A DNA stretch of 64,000 bases from sequence record PP488543.1; one strand, given 5' to 3'. This stretch comes from Escherichia phage BP9. The notes beneath the pieces are model-generated. The model searched no databases, was not told where the DNA came from, and saw only the letters and a list, made by a program, of their open reading frames with translations. A program made the translations under genes and the position numbers. Below, one piece after another: positions 46,687 through 60,123 of the stretch; the stretch's first letter is position 1; the number at the start of each line of letters is the position of its first letter.

Positions 46687-46887
46687 TTAGTAATACTCCC
46701 AACATGCCCCATCTTCAGACGGCTTGACGCGCTTACCTTTATGGTCAACATAGGTATAGCCACAACCTTCACAAATAACAGGTGCTGCATAGCCTTCCTT
46801 CCACTGATCCTCAGTGATCAGACCTTCCAAATCTTTGCAGTCAAAGCCAAACAACTCTTCAGAGCAATCTTTACAAAAATCAGCCAT
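46687..46887 (-). CDS. small zinc-ribbon protein
   Basis: 66 aa; CKDCS ... CEGCGY paired Cys motifs. Confidence 0.45.
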   Translation of the reverse strand: MADFCKDCSEELFGFDCKDLEGLITEDQWKEGYAAPVICEGCGYTYVDHKGKRVKPSEDGACWEYY

Positions 46888-50896: not shown

Positions 50897-52378
50897 TTAC
50901 TTAGCGTACTCGATTAATTCCACAGTTTTACCAAAGCTAGGGATATAATTTTTATTATACCCTTCGGTGAGAACCCATAAAGTATCGTACTTTTTCCACT
51001 TGTTGTCAACAGCCTTTTGTTCAAAGTTATGCTCAAAGTATAGGTCGGTCAGGACGATGACATCTTTTGCATTTGGTATGTTGGCATCCAGATACTCGAA
51101 CACGCAAGCAGCTGTTGTGCCCCATGTTGAGTGGACCTCATAGTTGATCATTTCGTCTATGTTGCCGCGAGTATATACTTTAACCTCTCCGACTTCAGTT
51201 GACCAACAGAACATTGTAACCTTAAACTCTTTATACAGATTGCACAATCCGGTGATTTCATTGAACATTTTCTTTAAAGTTCTTTGAGAGATCGAGCCAG
51301 AAACGTCTAAAGCTACCACAATATCTATGGTGTTTTCCGGATTACGACCAGGAACAATAACGTGCTGGTTCTTGTTTATAGCCCCAACTTTTCGCATTGT
51401 GCTGGTCAAAGACCCAGATCGGCGACCAGGTTTTCTGTAGGTCAGTTCGGCCTTTCGTTTAGACAACATGCGTTGCTTAATGATGTCTATATAGTTGATT
51501 ACAGGCTTACCTCTGTTCTTGACAAACTCACGCACCGCCTCGGGGCAACGACCTCCGGAAGCTTGCATTGCTGCTTCCAGCATGTCACCAGAGTCTTGCA
51601 TGGCCTGATCTTTATCAGATTGGCTGATTACAGGTTGTGGCTGATCATACCCCATAGCCTTTCCAAGATCATCGCTGGTGCCACCGTTCCCACTCATGTG
51701 ATCATCGGTTTGTCGCTTATCCCCTTGAGAGTTCTCACCTTTACCGCTCTTACTTTTACCGTTATTCTGATCTCTTTGCTTATCAAGAACCGCATAGACG
51801 TTCTCAGCAATCCATCCATGAAACCTCATGTCGCAGTAGCAGCTGGCTAAGAAACCAAAAGGCTTACCTTTCACGAACGTAGTGCTTTTCCCCTTCGGGA
51901 AGAAAACACAGGGAGGCTTGCTAAAGTCAACCACAAGACCTGTGTTGATAACATGATCACAAGCAATATTAAACAGTTCCGGCTCGAAGCTTTTACCACG
52001 GACCAGGTGATCACAGATAATATGCCCCACCTCGTGTGACAGAAGAAAAGCCACCTCTTTCACAGATTTGGGAGAATAGAAAACCTCAGCCATCTCAAAC
52101 TGTTCGTCAGTTAGAGAAGCCTTAAGAATAGCCTTGCGTTCATCAGCCAATCCCATAATGAACTCAGGGCTGTAATAGATGCGTTTATGGTCGGTTGCCA
52201 TGGTGGAGCACCATGTGTGGTTTTCTACGAACTGCAATCCTGACAGCAGTGTGCCATAAAACGGCAGCTTTTCAAGGAGATACATACGTGCAGCCTGCAA
52301 CATTCTCAGGGCATCATCTTTCTGTGAGGCAATGATTTCTGAACTTCTGCTATCCATTAAAACTCCAGAAGGGGCCAA
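50897..52378 (-). CDS. VWA-domain protein with N-terminal HExxH metallopeptidase-like motif (CobT / DUF2201-like)
   Basis: 493 aa; HEVGHIICDHL motif; C-terminal VVALDVSGSIS MIDAS-like motif. Confidence 0.6.
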   Translation of the reverse strand: MAPSGVLMDSRSSEIIASQKDDALRMLQAARMYLLEKLPFYGTLLSGLQFVENHTWCSTMATDHKRIYYSPEFIMGLADERKAILKASLTDEQFEMAEVFYSPKSVKEVAFLLSHEVGHIICDHLVRGKSFEPELFNIACDHVINTGLVVDFSKPPCVFFPKGKSTTFVKGKPFGFLASCYCDMRFHGWIAENVYAVLDKQRDQNNGKSKSGKGENSQGDKRQTDDHMSGNGGTSDDLGKAMGYDQPQPVISQSDKDQAMQDSGDMLEAAMQASGGRCPEAVREFVKNRGKPVINYIDIIKQRMLSKRKAELTYRKPGRRSGSLTSTMRKVGAINKNQHVIVPGRNPENTIDIVVALDVSGSISQRTLKKMFNEITGLCNLYKEFKVTMFCWSTEVGEVKVYTRGNIDEMINYEVHSTWGTTAACVFEYLDANIPNAKDVIVLTDLYFEHNFEQKAVDNKWKKYDTLWVLTEGYNKNYIPSFGKTVELIEYAK

Positions 52379-52390
52379 TGGCCCCTGTCA

Positions 52391-53380
52391 TTATTTAACG
52401 TGTTTGAAAATACCTGCCAACTCGGTCATTGTCATGCGGGTGGTCTTCATAAGATCTGTCATAGCTTTCTCCATAATTGGAGATACTACCATAAAGTTAC
52501 CCTTGGTGAAACCTTTATTCCAGTCGGTCACTAATAGTGGTTTAAGTCCGACCCCGAGACGCTCACCAGTTAAAGCACAACATTTTCGAATGTACGTGCT
52601 CTTAAATTGACTGAATGACAGATCAACTTTCATACCTGCATCGTAGAACGTCTGACAATAGAAAGTGTAAGCTTTGGCAATCTCAACATCGTCAGGCAGT
52701 GCAGGAACCTCTTCTGTGAGCTCTTCTTCGTCCCCTTGAGGCTCTTTTTCCTCTTCGTAAGCCTGTTGCGCCACTTCTTTAATCTCCTCTGCTGCAGGCT
52801 CGTTTACAATGTCAGAAATGTGCTTGTTGGCTCCACGGTTAGCCATGAAGTTTTTAAAATCCTGCATTGGTGACATATCTTCCTCCCATTCTTCGTCAAA
52901 GAGTGCCAGTTTATCCTCTTCCGTCCCATATTGCAAGATGAAATCTTCAAAAGTGTAATCACCTTTCAATTTCTCCATGCGCTCTTCGCTCAGGTGGAGC
53001 ATCATCTGCTGGACAATTTTTCGATCAGTTTTGTCTTTAATCAAGATTGCGGTCTTTTTATCTACCAGGCAGTCTTTCAGAGAGTTACACCTCAATCCTA
53101 CCACACAACAGTTATCAATTGCGTAAGGACCTTCATCATCTATCCGCTCCAGAGATGGGTAGAAAGGATTCCCCAGCCCGTTTTCATCTGTGTACATGTC
53201 GAAAGGTATAAGGGTATAGTCGCATACCCCCTCTCCTAAAAGTTTTTTACCAAATAGGAGGTATTCTTCCCATGACAGGTTGAACTCTATATCCCGTTTC
53301 CGTGCATTATTCTGTTTGCGTCTATATTTTTTGAGCAGGCGCTCTAACTCTTCTGGTGTATAATATTTTTCAAGATTCAT
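52391..53380 (-). CDS. hypothetical early protein with Cys-containing N-terminal domain
   Basis: ATG at 53380 chosen because track TTG start 53446 lies upstream of the predicted promoter; first gene of minus operon. Confidence 0.4.
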   Translation of the reverse strand: MNLEKYYTPEELERLLKKYRRKQNNARKRDIEFNLSWEEYLLFGKKLLGEGVCDYTLIPFDMYTDENGLGNPFYPSLERIDDEGPYAIDNCCVVGLRCNSLKDCLVDKKTAILIKDKTDRKIVQQMMLHLSEERMEKLKGDYTFEDFILQYGTEEDKLALFDEEWEEDMSPMQDFKNFMANRGANKHISDIVNEPAAEEIKEVAQQAYEEEKEPQGDEEELTEEVPALPDDVEIAKAYTFYCQTFYDAGMKVDLSFSQFKSTYIRKCCALTGERLGVGLKPLLVTDWNKGFTKGNFMVVSPIMEKAMTDLMKTTRMTMTELAGIFKHVK

Positions 53381-53411
53381 GAGTTGTCTCTTGTGCTCTG
53401 TAGGTGAAGAA

Positions 53412-53440
53412 ATCTTATCAAGTGCCTCAACAGATGTCAA
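53412..53440 (-). promoter_or_regulatory. sigma70-type promoter for minus-strand early operon
   Basis: On minus strand: -35 TTGACA (plus 53435-53440), 17 bp, -10 TAAGAT (plus 53412-53417). Confidence 0.5.
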
Positions 53441-53453
53441 CCTCAAAAACGTG

Positions 53454-53482
53454 TTGACTTTACCCTAAATCCACGATATAGT
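53454..53482 (+). promoter_or_regulatory. sigma70-type promoter for plus-strand early operon
   Basis: -35 TTGACT 53454-53459, 17 bp, -10 TATAGT 53477-53482; -35 elements of the divergent pair form inverted repeat GTCAAC/GTTGAC. Confidence 0.55.
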
Positions 53483-53522
53483 GCACCCATTCGAAAGAAA
53501 ACGAACACAGGAGTACTTAATC

Positions 53523-54422
53523 ATGGCAAATCTTAACAGCTTTAGCACTCGGTGGAAACAAGATATCACAACCAATCTCTCAGCAGGCGATATCCTTTCT
53601 GCAATTTACGAGGCTTTGGATGATAAAGCTACTTCAAAAGCGGTTTGTACCAACCCACTAATTCCTGTAGTGATGAAGGTTATTGAGCGTAGATTGGTAT
53701 CTGGGTCTGATAAGTGGACATATTTAGATAATGAAGGACACACCTATTCCAATGGGTACGTCGATATAAAAGTAGAATACGCGGTATCATACCGCCGGAG
53801 CGGTTCTGTAACTTTCAACTTCTCTGGAGGTTTTCGATCTCTGGCTACCTCACCTTTTGTTTCCTCAGAGGAGAAGTATGAGCTTCCATTTCTTTGGATG
53901 ATGGCTAACGCGACAGGAAAAACCCCCGTTAGCATCCGAGTAAAATACAACTACAACGGATCTAGTAAGATCTATGCCGAGAGTGTCTCAGCAAGTTTTT
54001 ATTTTGTGATGGGGGATGGAATCCTCAAACATATAAAGATGTGCGATATGCATGATGTTATAAATGAAGTGACTGATAAGAATGTTCTGGTGAAGGATCT
54101 CAACAATTTTTATACACCCGGAGACTATTACGTCAGCCGTCCACTGTGCATCTTTAATGCCGCACACCCTCTAGGTGAGTATTTGATCGCCAATAGCGAT
54201 ATTGCCAATAACCGCTTCGAGGTAGCAAGAGTACAGAATGAGGTATTGACATCTTGCAAGAGCGGTGATAAGTTTACCGAAGAAGAGATGGGTGTTTTAG
54301 AAATGATGGGATATAAGTGTAGCCTTTGGGTAGATGAGGTGTTTAATGATTGCATCTATGGACAGGATATTTACCCATTAAAGAAGTATACTGATTCCAG
54401 TTTAATTTACGCGGAGATTTGA
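53523..54422 (+). CDS. hypothetical early protein
   Basis: ATG 53523 with SD AGGAG (track GTG 53481 overlaps promoter -10). Confidence 0.4.
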   Translation: MANLNSFSTRWKQDITTNLSAGDILSAIYEALDDKATSKAVCTNPLIPVVMKVIERRLVSGSDKWTYLDNEGHTYSNGYVDIKVEYAVSYRRSGSVTFNFSGGFRSLATSPFVSSEEKYELPFLWMMANATGKTPVSIRVKYNYNGSSKIYAESVSASFYFVMGDGILKHIKMCDMHDVINEVTDKNVLVKDLNNFYTPGDYYVSRPLCIFNAAHPLGEYLIANSDIANNRFEVARVQNEVLTSCKSGDKFTEEEMGVLEMMGYKCSLWVDEVFNDCIYGQDIYPLKKYTDSSLIYAEI

Positions 54423-54697
54423 CTATGATGAAGTCATGTGGTAGTGTATATTATGTTGGTGAGAATGTTCAGGCAGATAGTGTGTGGAAATCCATTAAGT
54501 CCACCACCGATGATGCCTTTCTGAGCGGGTTATGCTTTCCCAGCCCAGGGGACACTCTCCCTTACCCTGGAGATTTTGTTGTCAACAAGATGGACGGTTA
54601 TACCGTGTGCCTGATGGTTGAAAAAATCTTTTTAGACACTAGACACAATCACCGTCTTGTGTTAAAATTTCAAGAATGTAAAATGACAATTGCCTAA
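54419..54697 (+). CDS. hypothetical protein
   Basis: 92 aa; ATGA overlap with upstream gene. Confidence 0.35.
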   Translation: MTMMKSCGSVYYVGENVQADSVWKSIKSTTDDAFLSGLCFPSPGDTLPYPGDFVVNKMDGYTVCLMVEKIFLDTRHNHRLVLKFQECKMTIA

Positions 54698-54710
54698 GGA
54701 GACCTTGCCG

Positions 54711-55067
54711 ATGTCTAAAGTTACTTATCGTGCAGCTATTTACTGCAATGAACACCCAATCTATAATGATGGTCACTGCCTTTTTAAAGAAAATCAATTG
54801 GGCTGTATTGTCCTCCCTGATGAAGGTGAAGGTTATCTGATTGCGTTGACAGGGTTTGAACCTGAAGCTCTGGAAACCAATCTTGACTACCTGGTAGAAG
54901 AGGGTGCTGCAGACCTGGTTGCCAATGGCCTATCCGTAAGCCTTGATGAAGTGGAGCGCTTCATGGGCAATTACCGTGTAGTGCGTGAGTTTACTATCGA
55001 GGTGGAAACTCCAGAGTGGGGTAGCACTGAAACTAATGCCGAAGAAAAAGAAGAGGAGGTAGAATAA
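54711..55067 (+). CDS. small acidic protein
   Basis: ATG 54711 with SD AAGGAGA (track TTG 54690); Glu-rich C-terminus EEKEEEVE. Confidence 0.4.
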   Translation: MSKVTYRAAIYCNEHPIYNDGHCLFKENQLGCIVLPDEGEGYLIALTGFEPEALETNLDYLVEEGAADLVANGLSVSLDEVERFMGNYRVVREFTIEVETPEWGSTETNAEEKEEEVE

Positions 55068-55324
55068 TGAAAGTGCAGATCTTGACTAATGCCGAGAAGA
55101 TGTTTATTGAAGATACACCTTTTGAAGCTGGTGAGCTACAGTTCGTTTATTTTGTTGACTTAGATAAGGTGTTCCCTGCACTGAATCTGGGTCTGGATGA
55201 AGTTCCTCATAAGGTTTTGTGCCAAGTTGTTCGTGCCTTAGCGGCAGAGGGGGAGTTCCACACCCTTCAAGATATCCAGACCTACGGGTATCTTGAACTA
55301 CAACGAGAAGAAGAGGTGGACTGA
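55067..55324 (+). CDS. small acidic protein
   Basis: 85 aa; SD GGAGG; TAATG coupling. Confidence 0.4.
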   Translation: MKVQILTNAEKMFIEDTPFEAGELQFVYFVDLDKVFPALNLGLDEVPHKVLCQVVRALAAEGEFHTLQDIQTYGYLELQREEEVD

Positions 55325-55326
55325 TA

Positions 55327-55707
55327 ATGGCTCAGTGGAAGACAACAGTTGACCTTCATGATCAGTGGTTAGGACGCATCACTGAAGACGGGAAGTTAGT
55401 TGAGTGGGACAATAAGCATGTTAGCGAGTTGGCAAGTATTGTGGCTGGCAAGTTACGATCCAAGTTCCCTGAACAACTGGATCCTGATAGTTCAAAGTTC
55501 GATCCTGAGTTGGAGGATGTTGTATACTACTTCGACACCGTGGATGACTACGATGCGTGGTTTGCAGCACGGGAGCTTTACCCACAAGGATCTGCTATGC
55601 GCCAGATGGAAGAAGATTATCCTCCGTGCGAGCAATTCAATAGTGCAATGACTTGCCTCTACGATTGGGCAGATAAGAACCTTGTCTGGATTCGGACTGC
55701 ATTTTAG
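55327..55707 (+). CDS. hypothetical protein
   Basis: 126 aa. Confidence 0.4.
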   Translation: MAQWKTTVDLHDQWLGRITEDGKLVEWDNKHVSELASIVAGKLRSKFPEQLDPDSSKFDPELEDVVYYFDTVDDYDAWFAARELYPQGSAMRQMEEDYPPCEQFNSAMTCLYDWADKNLVWIRTAF

Positions 55708-55751
55708 TGGGCAGGAATGGCGGCAAGGATGCTGCTTAAGGAGTAGTAGAG

Positions 55752-56021
55752 ATGTTATACCAGCAATATGAACTTCGTGCAGAAAAAGAGTTAAATTTTG
55801 ACAAAGATATTCACAGATATTATTATGGGAAAGTTAGAGGGCAAGCAAGAAAGTGTACTCCAACACTCTTTTATGCCAGCAGACGACTAGCGCCAGAAGA
55901 GGCAACAGCAGAAAGGGTTGCGTACAACTGGAGAGTCACGTATGATATTGACAGATCCGATGTGATATCTGTTTTGGAAAACTTTGAAAACACTTACACA
56001 CAAGTAGAGGACTTTTACTAA
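55752..56021 (+). CDS. hypothetical protein
   Basis: 89 aa; SD AAGGAG; overlaps ATPase start. Confidence 0.4.
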   Translation: MLYQQYELRAEKELNFDKDIHRYYYGKVRGQARKCTPTLFYASRRLAPEEATAERVAYNWRVTYDIDRSDVISVLENFENTYTQVEDFY

Positions 56022-57205
56022 TGTCAAGAAACGTATTTGAAAGTGGTCAAATCACTGTCCGTGAGTTGCCAGCTATCATTCAGTTTGCCCAGCGTCATAA
56101 CCGATCTGTCCTGATTTTAGGACCAATGGGTGTGGGAAAGAGCCAGGTGATGAAGCAGATCGCAGACAATATGTTCGGTGAGCGAGATGACAACTTGGTT
56201 GACGTGCGGTTGTCAGATAAAGATCCTGCCGACTTATCTGGGCTACCTATCCCTGTAGAAGCGGATGGAACTACACGTACAGTGTTTGCAATTCCAGAAT
56301 TTTGGCCTGCGGATCCTGGCTGGAGCGGAATTATCTTTCTGGATGAGCTCACTCATGCAGATAACTACCTGCAAAAGGTTGCAATGCAAATTATGCTCGA
56401 CCACAAGTGCGGTACCTATGCATTCCCTAAAGGTTCTGTTTTTGTGGCTGCTGGTAACCGTTCTACAGATGGTGCGGTTCTTTCGGCGCTCGAAGCCCCT
56501 CTGGCTAACCGTTTTATCATTGTAGAAGTTACAAGCAATGCAGAGGTGTTTATTGAGGACTACGCATTCCTTAATGGGGTGCACTCCTCTGTAATTGGAT
56601 ATTTGAAAAGAGTTCCATCAGCTATCGATAATTATGAGGCTATGGCTGAGATTAATTGTCCATCTTTTGCCACACCACGATCTTGGGTTGCTGCATCTGA
56701 CATCTTGCACGATTTTGACAGCGGTATTATTTCTGACGCTATGGCCCGTGTTCTTCTGCAAGGTGCTGTTGGTCACACTGCAGCGGTAGAGATCTGGACT
56801 TACCACATCAAGAAACGTAACTTACCGGAAATCGGTCGGATTATGGCAGGAGGTTGCAAAGAATATGTAGGTCCTAAACAGCCAGACATCTTGTGGATTC
56901 TTGGATCTGAAGGTTGTATCGCTATTCGTAATATGATGGAAAATGCAAGTATCTCCGACGAAGATCTTGTTAGCTGTGTGGCAAACTTCCTCGATTTCCT
57001 TTGGGAAAATTTCAAGGACGAGAACCGAGATTTTGTATTCTCAGTCTTTATGGCGATGATGAAACCTAATGCCTTAGGAAATGCCTTGCTTATCGGTAAA
57101 GGGCGTGACAAGATTGTTGCTCAGCTGATCAAAGCATACCCAAACCTAATGAAGATTGTAAAAGAGTTTGGTGAAGAGTTTAGCGCCATTTTGGCTAAAG
57201 CTTGA
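56021..57205 (+). CDS. AAA+ ATPase, MoxR/CobS-like
   Basis: 394 aa; Walker A GPMGVGKS, Walker B IIFLDELTHAD. Confidence 0.75.
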   Translation: MSRNVFESGQITVRELPAIIQFAQRHNRSVLILGPMGVGKSQVMKQIADNMFGERDDNLVDVRLSDKDPADLSGLPIPVEADGTTRTVFAIPEFWPADPGWSGIIFLDELTHADNYLQKVAMQIMLDHKCGTYAFPKGSVFVAAGNRSTDGAVLSALEAPLANRFIIVEVTSNAEVFIEDYAFLNGVHSSVIGYLKRVPSAIDNYEAMAEINCPSFATPRSWVAASDILHDFDSGIISDAMARVLLQGAVGHTAAVEIWTYHIKKRNLPEIGRIMAGGCKEYVGPKQPDILWILGSEGCIAIRNMMENASISDEDLVSCVANFLDFLWENFKDENRDFVFSVFMAMMKPNALGNALLIGKGRDKIVAQLIKAYPNLMKIVKEFGEEFSAILAKA

Positions 57206-57214
57206 GGAGGTTGT

Positions 57215-57595
57215 ATGGCTAAAGTAGGTAAGCGGGGAAACTACTTGGTAGTATTGACCGAGGAGCCGGAGAAGGAGTACGAATGCAGCTCCACTTGCGT
57301 GATCGATATCCGAGAAAAAGATGTAGATGAAATCTGGTTTGAAATATTAGACGCTTGCGACAGCAGTGATTATTTCTTCATCTATGTCAACGATAAAGCC
57401 GGGTTCTTCCATGACGACGGAGAGTTGCCGTATGAAATCTATGAGCTTGTAGAGGCTTGCCATCGTGGAGATGCGGAGTTGTTTGGCTTACGGCTGAAAA
57501 GCGGTAAATTCTTCTATCAAGATGAGTGCATGAATCTTCATAACTTTGTAGAGGGAACTTGCAACGATGGAGAGATTTTGGTACACTACGATTAA
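57215..57595 (+). CDS. small highly acidic protein
   Basis: 126 aa; very high Asp/Glu content; SD GAGGAGG. Confidence 0.4.
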   Translation: MAKVGKRGNYLVVLTEEPEKEYECSSTCVIDIREKDVDEIWFEILDACDSSDYFFIYVNDKAGFFHDDGELPYEIYELVEACHRGDAELFGLRLKSGKFFYQDECMNLHNFVEGTCNDGEILVHYD

Positions 57596-57605
57596 TTTCT
57601 AAGAC

Positions 57606-57634
57606 ACCCCCGCTTCGGCGGGGATTTTCTATTT
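57606..57634 (+). terminator. intrinsic terminator (CCCCGCTTCGGCGGGG family)
   Basis: CCCCCGC-TTCG-GCGGGGG then ATTTTCTATTT. Confidence 0.8.
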
Positions 57635-57643
57635 GGAGTTATT

Positions 57644-58144
57644 GTGAAAATTAAGATCTTTGCTATTATTTTGAGCGCACTTTTATCGCTGCCTGTTGTT
57701 GCAGCACCAAAACAAAAAGTATATCATACTTGCAAGCCATCGGATACTAAGGAAAACATTCTGGCATGCAATATCTACAGGGAAGCTAGAGGAGATGGCA
57801 CGATGGGTATGCTGGCATCTGGGTTTGCCACCCTAAACAGGAAATCTCATCCCAAATACCCGGACACTATAAGAAAGATTGTCTACCAACCTAATCAGTT
57901 TTCGTGGACAACCTACGGCAAAACTTTTAAGGTGACAGAAAAAGATTCATGGGATCACGCTAAAAGTCTTGCAAAGATGCTTCTAAAGGTCTATAATAAC
58001 AACCATGTTGCATACATGGCTATGGATATAACAGGTGGAGCAACACACTACCATACGACCAAAGTACGACCGAAATGGGCAAAAAAGATGCAGAGGACAG
58101 CTCAATTCGGGAGTCATATCTACTACAAGGAGCGCAATAAATGA
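57644..58144 (+). CDS. secreted cell wall hydrolase, SleB-like
   Basis: 166 aa; N-terminal signal peptide MKIKIFAIILSALLSLPVVAAP; motif NIYREARGDG...LNR...IVYQPNQFSW; GTG start with SD GGAG. Confidence 0.6.
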   Translation: MKIKIFAIILSALLSLPVVAAPKQKVYHTCKPSDTKENILACNIYREARGDGTMGMLASGFATLNRKSHPKYPDTIRKIVYQPNQFSWTTYGKTFKVTEKDSWDHAKSLAKMLLKVYNNNHVAYMAMDITGGATHYHTTKVRPKWAKKMQRTAQFGSHIYYKERNK

Positions 58145-60123
58145 TTGTAAACAGTAATGAAACTAAAGCAGTGCTAACTGGAAATATGGAGGTCACCAGG
58201 GGCTCAATTTCTCTGAACAAAGAGACTTTTGGGCTAATCATTAAAGGGATTTACGAAGATAAGGTGCTGGCAAGCTGCCGTGAACCAATCTTCAATGCTG
58301 TGGACTCTCATGTTGAGTCTGGACGGGGTGATGTACCGATCATCATTCACTCTCCTACAGACCTTGAACCATACTTCTTTGTGCAGGACGTTGGATTAGG
58401 CATGTCAGAAGAGATGGTCCGCAACACTTTCATGAACCTCGGAGAGTCAACCAAGCGCAACAGCAACGCTCTGGTGGGTAATAAAGGTGTTGGTTCAAAG
58501 GCCCCGTTCAGCATGGTGGACACTTTCGATGTGATCAGTGTACACAATGGTGTTGAAAGCACATATCTATTGTTCTTGGATCAGGGTATCCCAAACGTTA
58601 CCAAAATCCGCGAGCGGAAGACCGAAGAGCACAATGGGGTAAAAGTTCAGTTCCATGTTAAGAAAGAGCATGTTCTGAAATATCGCACTGCTATTGCATC
58701 ATGCCTACGCTATGCAAAGTTTCCGTTTACCGTTACCGATCCTATGACCAATAAGATGCTGGAAGGTGACAAGGTTGAGGCGCAGTATCGCTACGAGAAA
58801 GATGGTTGGAAAATGACCATCCTAAAGGGCTATACCAGCTCTGACGAGAGTCGCGTGGTAATGGGTCACCAACCTTACCGTTCTAAGTTCCTGGAGACAT
58901 TAACAGACTACCCTGCAATCTGTGTAGAGATCCCTATCGGGGATTGCAATATTAACCCTGGGCGCGAATGGACCATAGAGGGGCACGACGATGGTGGATT
59001 CCAAGAGCGGTTGGAGGCTTTTGTCAAAGAGGGTATCCGTCTTCGTGGGGCAGAAGTTGTTGCGGAATTGGAGACAGCAAAAACATCCTCAGAAGCACGT
59101 GAGATGATGAAGAACAGTGGAGTGTTCGGGCACATCTTCGGTAAGAATTTTATGTGGGACCGATGGGAAGAGACAGGACTAGGAAGTTTGGGAGATTGTG
59201 AGATCTTCGCTGGCGGCTTAAATAAAGGCCGCATAGGTTACGCCTGCTACGGAAAGTCGGAGTTCTTACGAGGGGTCTACTTAGTGTTTAACGACGGAGA
59301 CGGCAAATATAACCGAAATAAGTGTAACTACTTAAGCGAGATCACCGGACGCAACGTTTTCTATTGCCGTAACACGGATTTGGTGGAAGAGTTTAAAGAA
59401 GCGGCACACCACCCGTTCTTTGCAGATACGGTCAAATTGTTATCAGAGCTTCCTCGCCGACCTGTGAAGAAAGGTGAAACCAAAACTCGTTACGAGCCAG
59501 GCTATTGGGTTAAAAAACTTGAGAAGGATGGTTACTTCCGTCGTGAGCGTATTACTAAGGCAGAGTTCAGGAAGATTAAGCACTGCATTCCTTATGAGGG
59601 TGATATCCAACGTGGAAGTTGTTGGCTGGGACAGCTGAGTAACATCTACCAGCAAAATTATGACCGTGTGCGTGCGGCACTCCAGATTCCTGAAGGGGAA
59701 GATCTGTACCTAGTATCAGAATCTCGTCTGCTTTGGACTGATCCTGATTGCCAGTATGTTACAGAGAAGAATGTGGAACATTTGTTGAAAGAGGACGCCT
59801 GGAAATTCTTACTGACTCGCGCAGCAAATGAAACTTCATATGACAGCCTGTATAGACAATTAGGGAAAATTATTCCCATGCAAGATTTTGGAAATTATCG
59901 GCCACATTTCCACAAGTGGGAAGGTAACACCGCGTGGAAGCACAGTGAGCTAAATCATCGTGCCAAAATCTTAATCGCCAACCGAGTTAAATGCGGGAAG
60001 GCCTATATTGCAAGATTGGAAAAGAAATACCCACTTTTGAAGCATGTAGGCTTGAAATATTGGGACACTCCTGCTATGATTGAATACCGTGAACTGATCG
60101 ATACAAAGAATAACATCAAATAA
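58141..60123 (+). CDS. rIIA: rIIA-like protein
   Basis: 660 aa; N-terminal region parallels T4 rIIA (...DVGLGMSEE...GNKGVGSKAPFSMVDTF...). Confidence 0.8.
   Translation: MIVNSNETKAVLTGNMEVTRGSISLNKETFGLIIKGIYEDKVLASCREPIFNAVDSHVESGRGDVPIIIHSPTDLEPYFFVQDVGLGMSEEMVRNTFMNLGESTKRNSNALVGNKGVGSKAPFSMVDTFDVISVHNGVESTYLLFLDQGIPNVTKIRERKTEEHNGVKVQFHVKKEHVLKYRTAIASCLRYAKFPFTVTDPMTNKMLEGDKVEAQYRYEKDGWKMTILKGYTSSDESRVVMGHQPYRSKFLETLTDYPAICVEIPIGDCNINPGREWTIEGHDDGGFQERLEAFVKEGIRLRGAEVVAELETAKTSSEAREMMKNSGVFGHIFGKNFMWDRWEETGLGSLGDCEIFAGGLNKGRIGYACYGKSEFLRGVYLVFNDGDGKYNRNKCNYLSEITGRNVFYCRNTDLVEEFKEAAHHPFFADTVKLLSELPRRPVKKGETKTRYEPGYWVKKLEKDGYFRRERITKAEFRKIKHCIPYEGDIQRGSCWLGQLSNIYQQNYDRVRAALQIPEGEDLYLVSESRLLWTDPDCQYVTEKNVEHLLKEDAWKFLLTRAANETSYDSLYRQLGKIIPMQDFGNYRPHFHKWEGNTAWKHSELNHRAKILIANRVKCGKAYIARLEKKYPLLKHVGLKYWDTPAMIEYRELIDTKNNIK

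Follow-up and report, generated by a model that had tools for sequence, protein, structure and literature searches.

Small acidic proteins encoded around a MoxR-like ATPase gene in a predicted early operon of an rV5-like Escherichia coli phage

Organisation of the locus

The window, which is the whole 64-kb stretch of DNA analysed here, comes from a Vequintavirus, an rV5-like myovirus of E. coli. The genes of interest are listed in Table 1. Four of them encode small acidic proteins, here called A, B, C and F. They share one predicted transcription unit, bounded by sigma70-like promoters and a terminator, and they flank the gene of a MoxR-like ATPase. An earlier note had listed A, B and F, and all three are present where it placed them, each with an ATG start and an upstream Shine-Dalgarno sequence (taaggag before A; gaggagg before B and before F). 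The fourth acidic ORF of the interval, C, was missing from that list. The start of B overlaps the stop of A (ATGA).

Table 1. Genes and signals of the acidic-protein locus and its flank (positions in the window; net, net charge; D+E, Asp plus Glu content).
Feature	Position	Strand	Properties and basis
DUF2201_N metallopeptidase and DUF2201 VWA-like protein, rV5 gp12-like	50897..52357	-	Pfam PF13203 (E=6.8e-28), PF09967 (E=3.5e-11); relatives annotated alike
Srd-like 'anti-sigma factor', rV5 gp11-like	52391..53380	-	divergent; net -19; annotation in relatives
Bidirectional sigma70-like promoters	53412..53482	+ and -	+ TTGACT-17-TATAGT; - TTGACA-17-TAAGAT, extended -10
gp10-like	53523..54422	+	299 aa; first gene of the unit
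gp9-like	54425..54697	+	90 aa; near-neutral
Acidic ORF A, rV5 gp8-like	54711..55067	+	118 aa; net -20; pI 4.12; D+E 22.9%; acidic C-terminal tail
Acidic ORF B, rV5 gp7-like	55067..55324	+	85 aa; net -11; pI 4.32; D+E 20.0%
Acidic ORF C, rV5 gp6-like	55327..55707	+	126 aa; net -13
D, gp5-like	55752..56021	+	89 aa; near-neutral; between C and the ATPase
MoxR-like AAA+ ATPase, rV5 gp4-like	56021..57205	+	phrog_1297 (E=1.8e-109); weak AAA and bpMoxR Pfam matches; annotation in relatives
Acidic ORF F, rV5 gp3-like	57215..57595	+	126 aa; net -18; pI 4.34; D+E 23.0%
Intrinsic terminator-like hairpin	57608..57623	+	CCCCGC-TTCG-GCGGGG, then T-run; end of the unit

The note had also placed its three genes in an early operon. 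This is plausible from the sigma70-like promoters, the strong terminator and the prediction of the same bidirectional promoters in the rV5 paper, and we infer that the interval is the promoter-proximal portion of an early operon driven by the host RNA polymerase, equivalent to genes 10 to 3 of rV5. The rIIA/rIIB genes and replication genes lie further along. A search of the literature for Vequintavirus transcriptomes, anti-defence genes, and BREX or PARIS data returned nothing specific to these genes.

The gp12-like protein, encoded on the opposite strand, probably partners the MoxR-like ATPase. The rV5 paper regards gp11 as a probable Srd homologue; a Pfam search with the gp11-like protein of the window gave no match. 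The gp10-like protein is annotated in relatives as a 'putative alpha-1,3-fucosyltransferase', an annotation without family support.

Acidity of the proteins

The description of A, B and F as short and strongly Asp/Glu-rich is borne out by their computed pI and net charge (Table 1). All three are within the top five of about 68 ORFs of the window when ranked by negative net charge per residue. The values are -0.169 for A, -0.143 for F, -0.129 for B and -0.103 for C, against a median of -0.027 for the ORFs of the window and -0.239 for T7 Ocr.

Composition does not discriminate, because many small proteins of such a genome are equally or more acidic. The complete genome of the close relative A51.2 has at least 16 small ORFs with a net charge of -11 or lower and a net charge per residue of -0.10 or lower, and 24 small ORFs with a pI below 4.4. 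Several exceed the flagged ORFs in acidity, for example a 113-aa ORF with a net charge of -26. T7 Ocr (117 aa, net charge -28) is more acidic than all of these ORFs.

The net negative charge is retained in homologues down to 32–56% identity. Acidity is therefore a selected property, and its upkeep at this divergence suggests that the charge itself matters. This weighs against the alternative that acidity is incidental, the proteins having phage-internal roles (assembly or replication accessory, or ATPase substrate) free of any conflict with the host. That alternative fits the abundance of small acidic proteins throughout the genome, the core-like constraint on F and C described below, and the continuation of the operon into rIIA/rIIB and the replication genes, and is at odds with the apparent dispensability of A. 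We consider it rather unlikely.

Homology and structure searches

None of the four acidic proteins matched a family in Pfam (E<=1), NCBIfam or the PDB, and their PHROG matches are limited to PHROGs of unknown function. Only Vequintavirus-type contigs were recovered when 1.84 billion representative proteins were scanned exhaustively with HMMs, and likewise by a word-indexed homology search; for A, the 1.84 billion proteins yielded one cluster representative and one fragment. Homologues of A, B and F were detected in the genus Vequintavirus only. The four are genuine proteins without relatives outside their phage group.

The earlier note had proposed, on composition, that its three proteins are candidate DNA mimics of the Ocr type. 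Neither phmmer nor profile searches of the PDB, a collection that includes Ocr (Pfam PF08684; PDB 1S7Z), detected homology to T7 Ocr, and tblastn with the Ocr sequence yielded nothing above noise in the window or in the A51.2 genome. ArdA (Pfam PF07275) was matched neither by the proteins of the window nor by the 119 small proteins of A51.2, and the small zinc-ribbon protein Lar/Ral (phrog_599) by no protein of the window. The related Avunavirus Av-05 does carry a Lar-like gene (a phrog_599 match) near the equivalent region; tblastn of its product against the window and A51.2 found nothing (best E=0.13). More generally, no known anti-restriction gene was found in A51.2, either by Pfam among its 119 small proteins or by PHROGs among the ten most acidic.

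Shallow alignments gave AlphaFold2 models of low confidence for A and F (pLDDT 57.7 and 54.3), with mixed α/β secondary structure. Foldseek comparison of these models with the PDB and BFVD returned nothing at E<0.3. The idea that A and F are paralogues was rejected by hhalign.

Two acidic proteins with a probable link to the MoxR-like ATPase

C is kept across the genera of the Vequintavirinae, always upstream of the MoxR ATPase gene and with one gene in between. The order C, small ORF, MoxR is found in Mydovirus, Seunavirus (PVP-SE1, GAP31), Avunavirus and a divergent metagenomic lineage. In phages of Klebsiella, Salmonella, Cronobacter and E. coli, as in the metagenomic lineage, the C-like gene, the small ORF and the gene of the ATPase overlap or abut at their ends. 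C thus shares with the ATPase a gene neighbourhood that is conserved and translationally coupled across genera, as expected of an accessory of a MoxR module. Its dN/dS is 0.06, and that of MoxR 0.022. From the order of the cassette and the overlapping stop and start codons in several genera, C most likely acts with the ATPase. We propose that it would be an adaptor, cofactor or substrate of this chaperone-like ATPase, alongside the divergently encoded VWA-metallopeptidase.

F lies directly 3' of the ATPase gene, a position occupied in other genera by unrelated small genes. Its dN/dS of 0.019, against 0.022 for MoxR, indicates very strong purifying selection, and Cys24, Cys48, Cys82-His83 and Cys105 are conserved. 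Its place beside the ATPase, the equal constraint and the four Cys and one His retained suggest that F is probably a core partner with a defined fold, which may bind metal. C and F have the look of conserved genes of a core or module, not of arms-race genes.

Variability of A and conservation of B

The dN/dS is 0.22 for A and 0.09 for B. Compared with contig L010, A is 72% identical and its neighbours 92–98%, and in one isolate, phage YP-6, A is frameshifted. The variability was first noticed at loci picked for divergence in A, and in unbiased counts by tblastn A is still variable, falling below 90% identity in 11 of 116 records, but less so than the neutral gp5-like D (37 of 116), which has divergent alleles across the genus. 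A zinc site in A was considered and rejected, as its three Cys are not kept in the divergent lineage. B is strongly conserved within the genus.

A is variable and apparently dispensable, and this makes A and B, which occupy genus-specific slots, the likeliest host-interaction factors of the unit. We envisage that, early in infection, each would use its negative surface to bind a basic protein of host or phage one-to-one, often a protein that itself binds nucleic acid. The four acidic proteins are not one class. The overall reading that we prefer, and hold tentatively at somewhat under an even chance, is of an early-operon unit of four unlike acidic proteins, with C and F linked to MoxR and A and B as the likeliest host-interaction factors.

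A related alternative is that at least one of the proteins is an inhibitor for anti-defence or host takeover that acts by means other than DNA mimicry; RecBCD, nucleoid proteins, RNA polymerase and abortive-infection systems are possible targets. The adjacent Srd-like anti-sigma gene in the early unit, the genus-specific slots around a conserved cassette and the variability and frameshift of A are consistent with this. It remains rather unlikely, since no result points to a target, and since the genus keeps F, C and B with little change, unlike typical anti-defence genes with their fast turnover.

Restriction escape in BASEL plating data

The raw plating data of BASEL bear on anti-restriction. 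On EcoKI, Vequintaviruses with 9–17 sites plate at an efficiency (EOP) of 0.1–0.75, and on EcoCFT_I, with 4–6 sites, at 0.2–4.7. Unprotected siphoviruses with 3–7 sites plate at 1e-4 to 1e-5 (EcoKI) and 1e-2 to 1e-3 (EcoCFT_I). Type II and III systems, by contrast, restrict these Vequintaviruses to 1e-3 or worse, and the Ocr-carrying T7 is likewise restricted by type III. At the level of the phage, escape from type I combined with sensitivity to types II and III is an Ocr-like pattern. The published summary describes rV5-like phages as without protection from restriction.

The BASEL phages that escape type I carry the genes described here at about 97% identity, and EcoKI sites are not avoided in the window (7 sites, against 8.25 expected). 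As no known anti-restriction family occurs among the small proteins of A51.2, escape would need an unknown gene. A, which is small, early, variable and dispensable-looking and whose acidity is conserved, is the most plausible candidate. These observations speak for one or more of the flagged proteins being a new DNA-mimic or Ocr-like inhibitor that would bind in the DNA-binding groove of type I enzymes, and perhaps also act on BREX. However, the related phi92-like Bas60-62 and the unrelated Felixounavirus Bas63 (Felix O1-like) also escape type I, and homologues of A, B and F were detected only in Vequintavirus, so that phages can escape without them. For the same reason an attempt to narrow down the candidates by the phyletic pattern of type I escape failed. 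In addition, the many other small ORFs of equal or greater acidity compete for the role, the charge density is well under that of Ocr, homology was not found, and the structural models are of low confidence. We therefore regard such a mimic among the flagged proteins as distinctly unlikely. That A itself is the mimic is a little less probable again, and the gp7-, gp6- and gp3-like proteins are weaker candidates still. It would be equally surprising if A founded a new family of inhibitors of type I restriction (possibly of BREX).

The question has practical weight. rV5-like phages rank among the E. coli phages most often isolated and serve in therapy cocktails, yet almost none of their early genes is annotated. 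The raw plating data present a type-I-specific escape, with no site avoidance and no recognisable anti-restriction gene, and assigning the escape to a gene would give a new anti-restriction family. Were A to found such a family, it would explain the type I escape of Vequintaviruses that the BASEL raw data show and that has so far gone unremarked. The conserved module of an acidic protein, a small ORF, the MoxR ATPase and the VWA-metallopeptidase would represent a second uncharacterised early function, common to the whole phage subfamily.

Comparison with known systems

T7 Ocr (gp0.3) inhibits type I restriction-modification and BREX; the carboxylates arrayed over the surface of its fold mimic the phosphates along bent B-DNA. 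In common with the acidic ORFs described here it is small (117 aa, against 85–126 aa) and acidic, its gene lying close to an early promoter of host type, and the phages carrying these ORFs plate as T7 does in the same assay, escaping type I and remaining sensitive to type III. In contrast, the sequences are not similar, A, B and F carry only -0.13 to -0.17 charges per residue against -0.24, and Ocr is all-α where the low-confidence models of A and F are mixed α/β. The type-I-specific phenotype, at the level of the phage, is also that expected of ArdA or small ArdA and of Lar/Ral, but the proteins of the window have no ArdA or Lar match in Pfam or the PHROGs.

T4 encodes small acidic early proteins for host takeover, such as Arn. 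The proteins described here are likewise small, acidic and early, and are encoded among anti-sigma-type and rII genes, but homology was not detected.

Modules of a MoxR AAA+ ATPase and a VWA-domain partner include RavA-ViaA and CbbQ-CbbO. The phage locus resembles them in that the gene of its MoxR-like ATPase lies near that of the VWA-like (DUF2201) protein, with small accessory genes conserved beside the ATPase. It differs in that the VWA protein is encoded on the opposite strand and has an N-terminal metallopeptidase-like domain, and in that described MoxR systems have no counterpart of either the small acidic protein C or the D-like ORF.

Gene organisation

Many Escherichia phages in the genus Vequintavirus (rV5-like myoviruses), the BASEL phage Bas54 MaxBurger among them, share 97-98% identity with window positions 53400-58200. 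The gene map below was taken from annotated relatives and the FV3 record, and follows the gene numbers of phage rV5. Downstream of F lie a SleB-type cell-wall hydrolase, rIIA and rIIB. Good sigma70-like promoters are found on both strands of the divergent intergenic region, and a GC-rich hairpin with a T-run lies 3' of F; it is therefore reasonable to infer that the unit between them is expressed early.

Features of the A-F region and of related loci (window positions unless another sequence is named)
Feature	Position	Strand
G, gp10	53523-54422	+
H, gp9	54425-54697	+
A, gp8 (acidic)	54711-55067	+
B, gp7 (acidic)	55067-55324	+
C, gp6 (acidic)	55327-55707	+
D, gp5 (neutral)	55752-56021	+
E, gp4, MoxR-like ATPase	56021-57205	+
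F, gp3 (acidic)	57215-57595	+
Cassette C-D-E	55327-57205	
Srd-like "anti-sigma factor"	52391-53380	opposite to A-F
DUF2201 metallopeptidase/VWA-like protein	50897-52357	opposite to A-F
Sigma70-like promoters in the divergent intergenic region	53412-53482	both
Sigma70-like match within D	55798-55826	
Hairpin and T-run	57608-57623	
66-aa zinc-ribbon-like protein	46687-46887	-
A51.2 ORF, 113 aa, net -26	A51.2 115172-115513 (outside window)	
A51.2 ORF, 116 aa, net -22	A51.2 100401-100751 (outside window)	
A51.2 ORF, 71 aa, net -16	A51.2 103852-104067 (outside window)	
Truncated A, isolate YP-6	L012 3201-3559	
Lar-like protein, Avunavirus Av-05	L009 141-344	

The top sigma70-like match of an 18-kb scan (TTGACA-17-TATTAT, 11/12) falls within D just upstream of E, and may be an internal promoter. 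G is annotated as a "putative alpha-1,3-fucosyltransferase" in many GenBank records, yet has no Pfam or NCBIfam match even at E<=1. In this region, E. coli Vequintaviruses are matched at 95-99% identity by sixteen UNVERIFIED records labelled "Campylobacter phage" with C. jejuni as host, a label that probably reflects contamination or host misattribution.

Acidic proteins

The earlier note had described A, B and F as strongly acidic, and had read them from composition as candidate Ocr-like DNA mimics directed against restriction or other defences. The ORFs and their acidity stand: each has an ATG start with a good Shine-Dalgarno sequence upstream, and the computed net charges are -20, -11 and -18 (pI 4.1-4.3). 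The three ORFs listed were correct, but C (net -13), inside the same interval, had been overlooked. Ranked by net negative charge per residue, these four are among the top five ORFs of the window. Their charge is conserved, at -9 to -18 in homologues with 57-71% identity and in syntenic homologues of a divergent metagenomic lineage with 32-56%.

Small acidic ORFs are common in this phage. By a crude ORF call on the complete genome of the relative A51.2 (ON286973.1), net <= -11 together with net/length <= -0.10 is reached by at least 16 small ORFs, and pI < 4.4 by 24. Several exceed the flagged ORFs in acidity, and the three tabulated, all in PHROGs of unknown function, are closer to Ocr in composition. 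T7 Ocr itself (sequence checked against PDB 1S7Z) is markedly more acidic than the flagged ORFs, at net -28 or -0.24 per residue.

None of the four acidic proteins matches any Pfam or NCBIfam model, all fall in PHROGs without known function, and PDB sequence and profile searches gave nothing significant. For A, only relatives of Vequintavirus type were found among 5.8 billion proteins, and one cluster representative plus one fragment among 1.84 billion representatives. From shallow alignments AlphaFold gave low-confidence models of A (pLDDT 57.7) and F (pLDDT 54.3). Their predicted secondary structure is mixed α/β, and the acidic tail of A is modelled as disordered; Foldseek searches with these models against PDB and BFVD gave no match better than E=0.3.

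Conservation of the gene cluster

The four acidic genes are unlike one another. Mydovirus, Seunavirus and Avunavirus phages encode homologues of C with 27-39% identity. All loci examined share one gene order, namely C-like gene, ORF of about 80 residues, MoxR ATPase, with stops and starts that overlap or abut. This cassette (also in L003, L007, L008, L009 and L019), an uncharacterised and presumably early module, occurs in at least four Vequintavirinae genera. Upstream of it the Srd-like gene lies divergently in this window and in the Seunavirus loci, and the DUF2201 protein is nearby in this window and other Vequintavirus-type loci. C is most likely part of a conserved MoxR-ATPase/VWA module. 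The A, B and F slots hold unrelated genes in the other three genera.

Within the genus, BP9 and a 137-kb metagenomic Vequintavirus contig have operon proteins 92-98% identical, except for A (72%, with saturated dS). Across nine loci, dN/dS is lowest in F (0.019) and the ATPase (0.022), followed by C (0.06), B (0.09), A (0.22) and D (0.31); these loci were picked for divergence in A, so that the diversity peak over A is biased. By tblastn over all phage records, those below 90% identity number 11/116 for A, 1/117 for B, 0/115 for F, two within the genus for C and 37/116 for D. Thus A is variable, though it is not the only such gene. The alleles of neutral D diverge sharply genus-wide (23/116 records at 60-80% identity, 14 at 80-90%), while its flanking genes are >95% identical.

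A 1-nt deletion in isolate YP-6 truncates A to a 42-codon product, and a frameshift in one metagenomic variant (protein P0006) turns the acidic tail basic (KKKKRR), which suggests from sequence that A is dispensable. Its three Cys are absent in the divergent lineage. F retains Cys24, Cys48, Cys82-His83 and Cys105 at 56% identity. F is a tightly constrained genus-core protein adjoining the MoxR ATPase; the slots that hold A and B are variable ones. We propose that the acidic proteins bind basic protein surfaces one-to-one early in infection; for C, this partner would be the phage's own MoxR/VWA machinery.

Restriction phenotype

Plating values and site counts were taken from the raw data of the BASEL paper (S1 Data and S5 Table; PMC8594841).

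Type I restriction sites and plating efficiency (EOP)
Phage	EcoKI sites	EcoKI EOP	EcoCFT_I sites	EcoCFT_I EOP
MaxBurger (Bas54, Vequintavirus)	11	0.11-0.54	4	0.6-4.7
Bas51, 53, 55, 56, 59 (Vequintavirus)	13-15 where read	0.1-0.75	4-6 where read	0.2-1.4 where read
Bas60-62 (phi92-like)	12-14	0.1-0.7	7-9	0.46-1.3
Bas63 (Felixounavirus)	9	about 1 (0.75-1.5)	9	0.3-0.8
Bas01 (siphovirus)	3	about 1e-4	6	about 1e-2
Bas02 (siphovirus)	7	about 1e-5	7	about 2e-3
T7 (Ocr-encoding)		0.6-1.3		0.3-1

Vequintavirus genomes have 9-17 EcoKI sites (PMC8594841), and EcoKI sites are not avoided in the window (7 found, 8.25 expected). The paper calls Vequintavirinae "exceptionally susceptible" to R-M systems and says that they "lack any effective protection" (PMC8594841). 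The type I raw plating is at odds with this summary: in the range Bas50-Bas63, the Felixounavirus, phi92-like phages and Vequintaviruses carry 9-17 EcoKI sites and plate at an EOP of 0.1-1.5 on EcoKI and 0.2-4.7 on EcoCFT_I. The drop in siphoviruses, which have 3-7 sites, is 1e2- to 1e5-fold. A mechanism of type-I-specific escape for which no gene is known appears to be common among large virulent E. coli myoviruses.

No recognisable anti-restriction gene was found by Pfam on 119 small A51.2 proteins, by PHROGs on the ten most acidic of them, or by tblastn with Ocr and with the Av-05 Lar-like protein. The latter (phrog_599, restriction alleviation) lies in the divergent arm adjoining the equivalent region, so a type I countermeasure can be recognised there in at least some Vequintavirinae. 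The 66-aa acidic protein of the window has zinc-ribbon-like CxxC...CxxC spacing and belongs to phrog_2210 (unknown function); neither PHROG nor Pfam supports it as Lar-like.

The escape keeps the DNA-mimic idea alive but cannot be assigned to A, B or F. It is not specific, because phi92-like phages and the Felixounavirus behave alike, and tblastn detected A, B and F homologues only in Vequintavirus (115-117 records). Because so many candidates are as acidic, A is unlikely to be a DNA mimic, and B and F are less likely still. Among the four acidic proteins, A is the strongest candidate for an anti-defence role.

Against the same Vequintaviruses, EcoRI (type II) gives an EOP of about 5e-4 and EcoRV usually no plaques; among type III systems, EcoCFT_II mostly allows no plaques and EcoP1 about 1e-3, with Bas51 on EcoCFT_II and Bas56 on EcoP1 much less affected (PMC8594841). 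T7 likewise forms no plaques on type III systems (PMC8594841). Vequintaviruses show a type-I-specific escape of the kind that Ocr confers, and in combining it with type III sensitivity they resemble Ocr-carrying T7.
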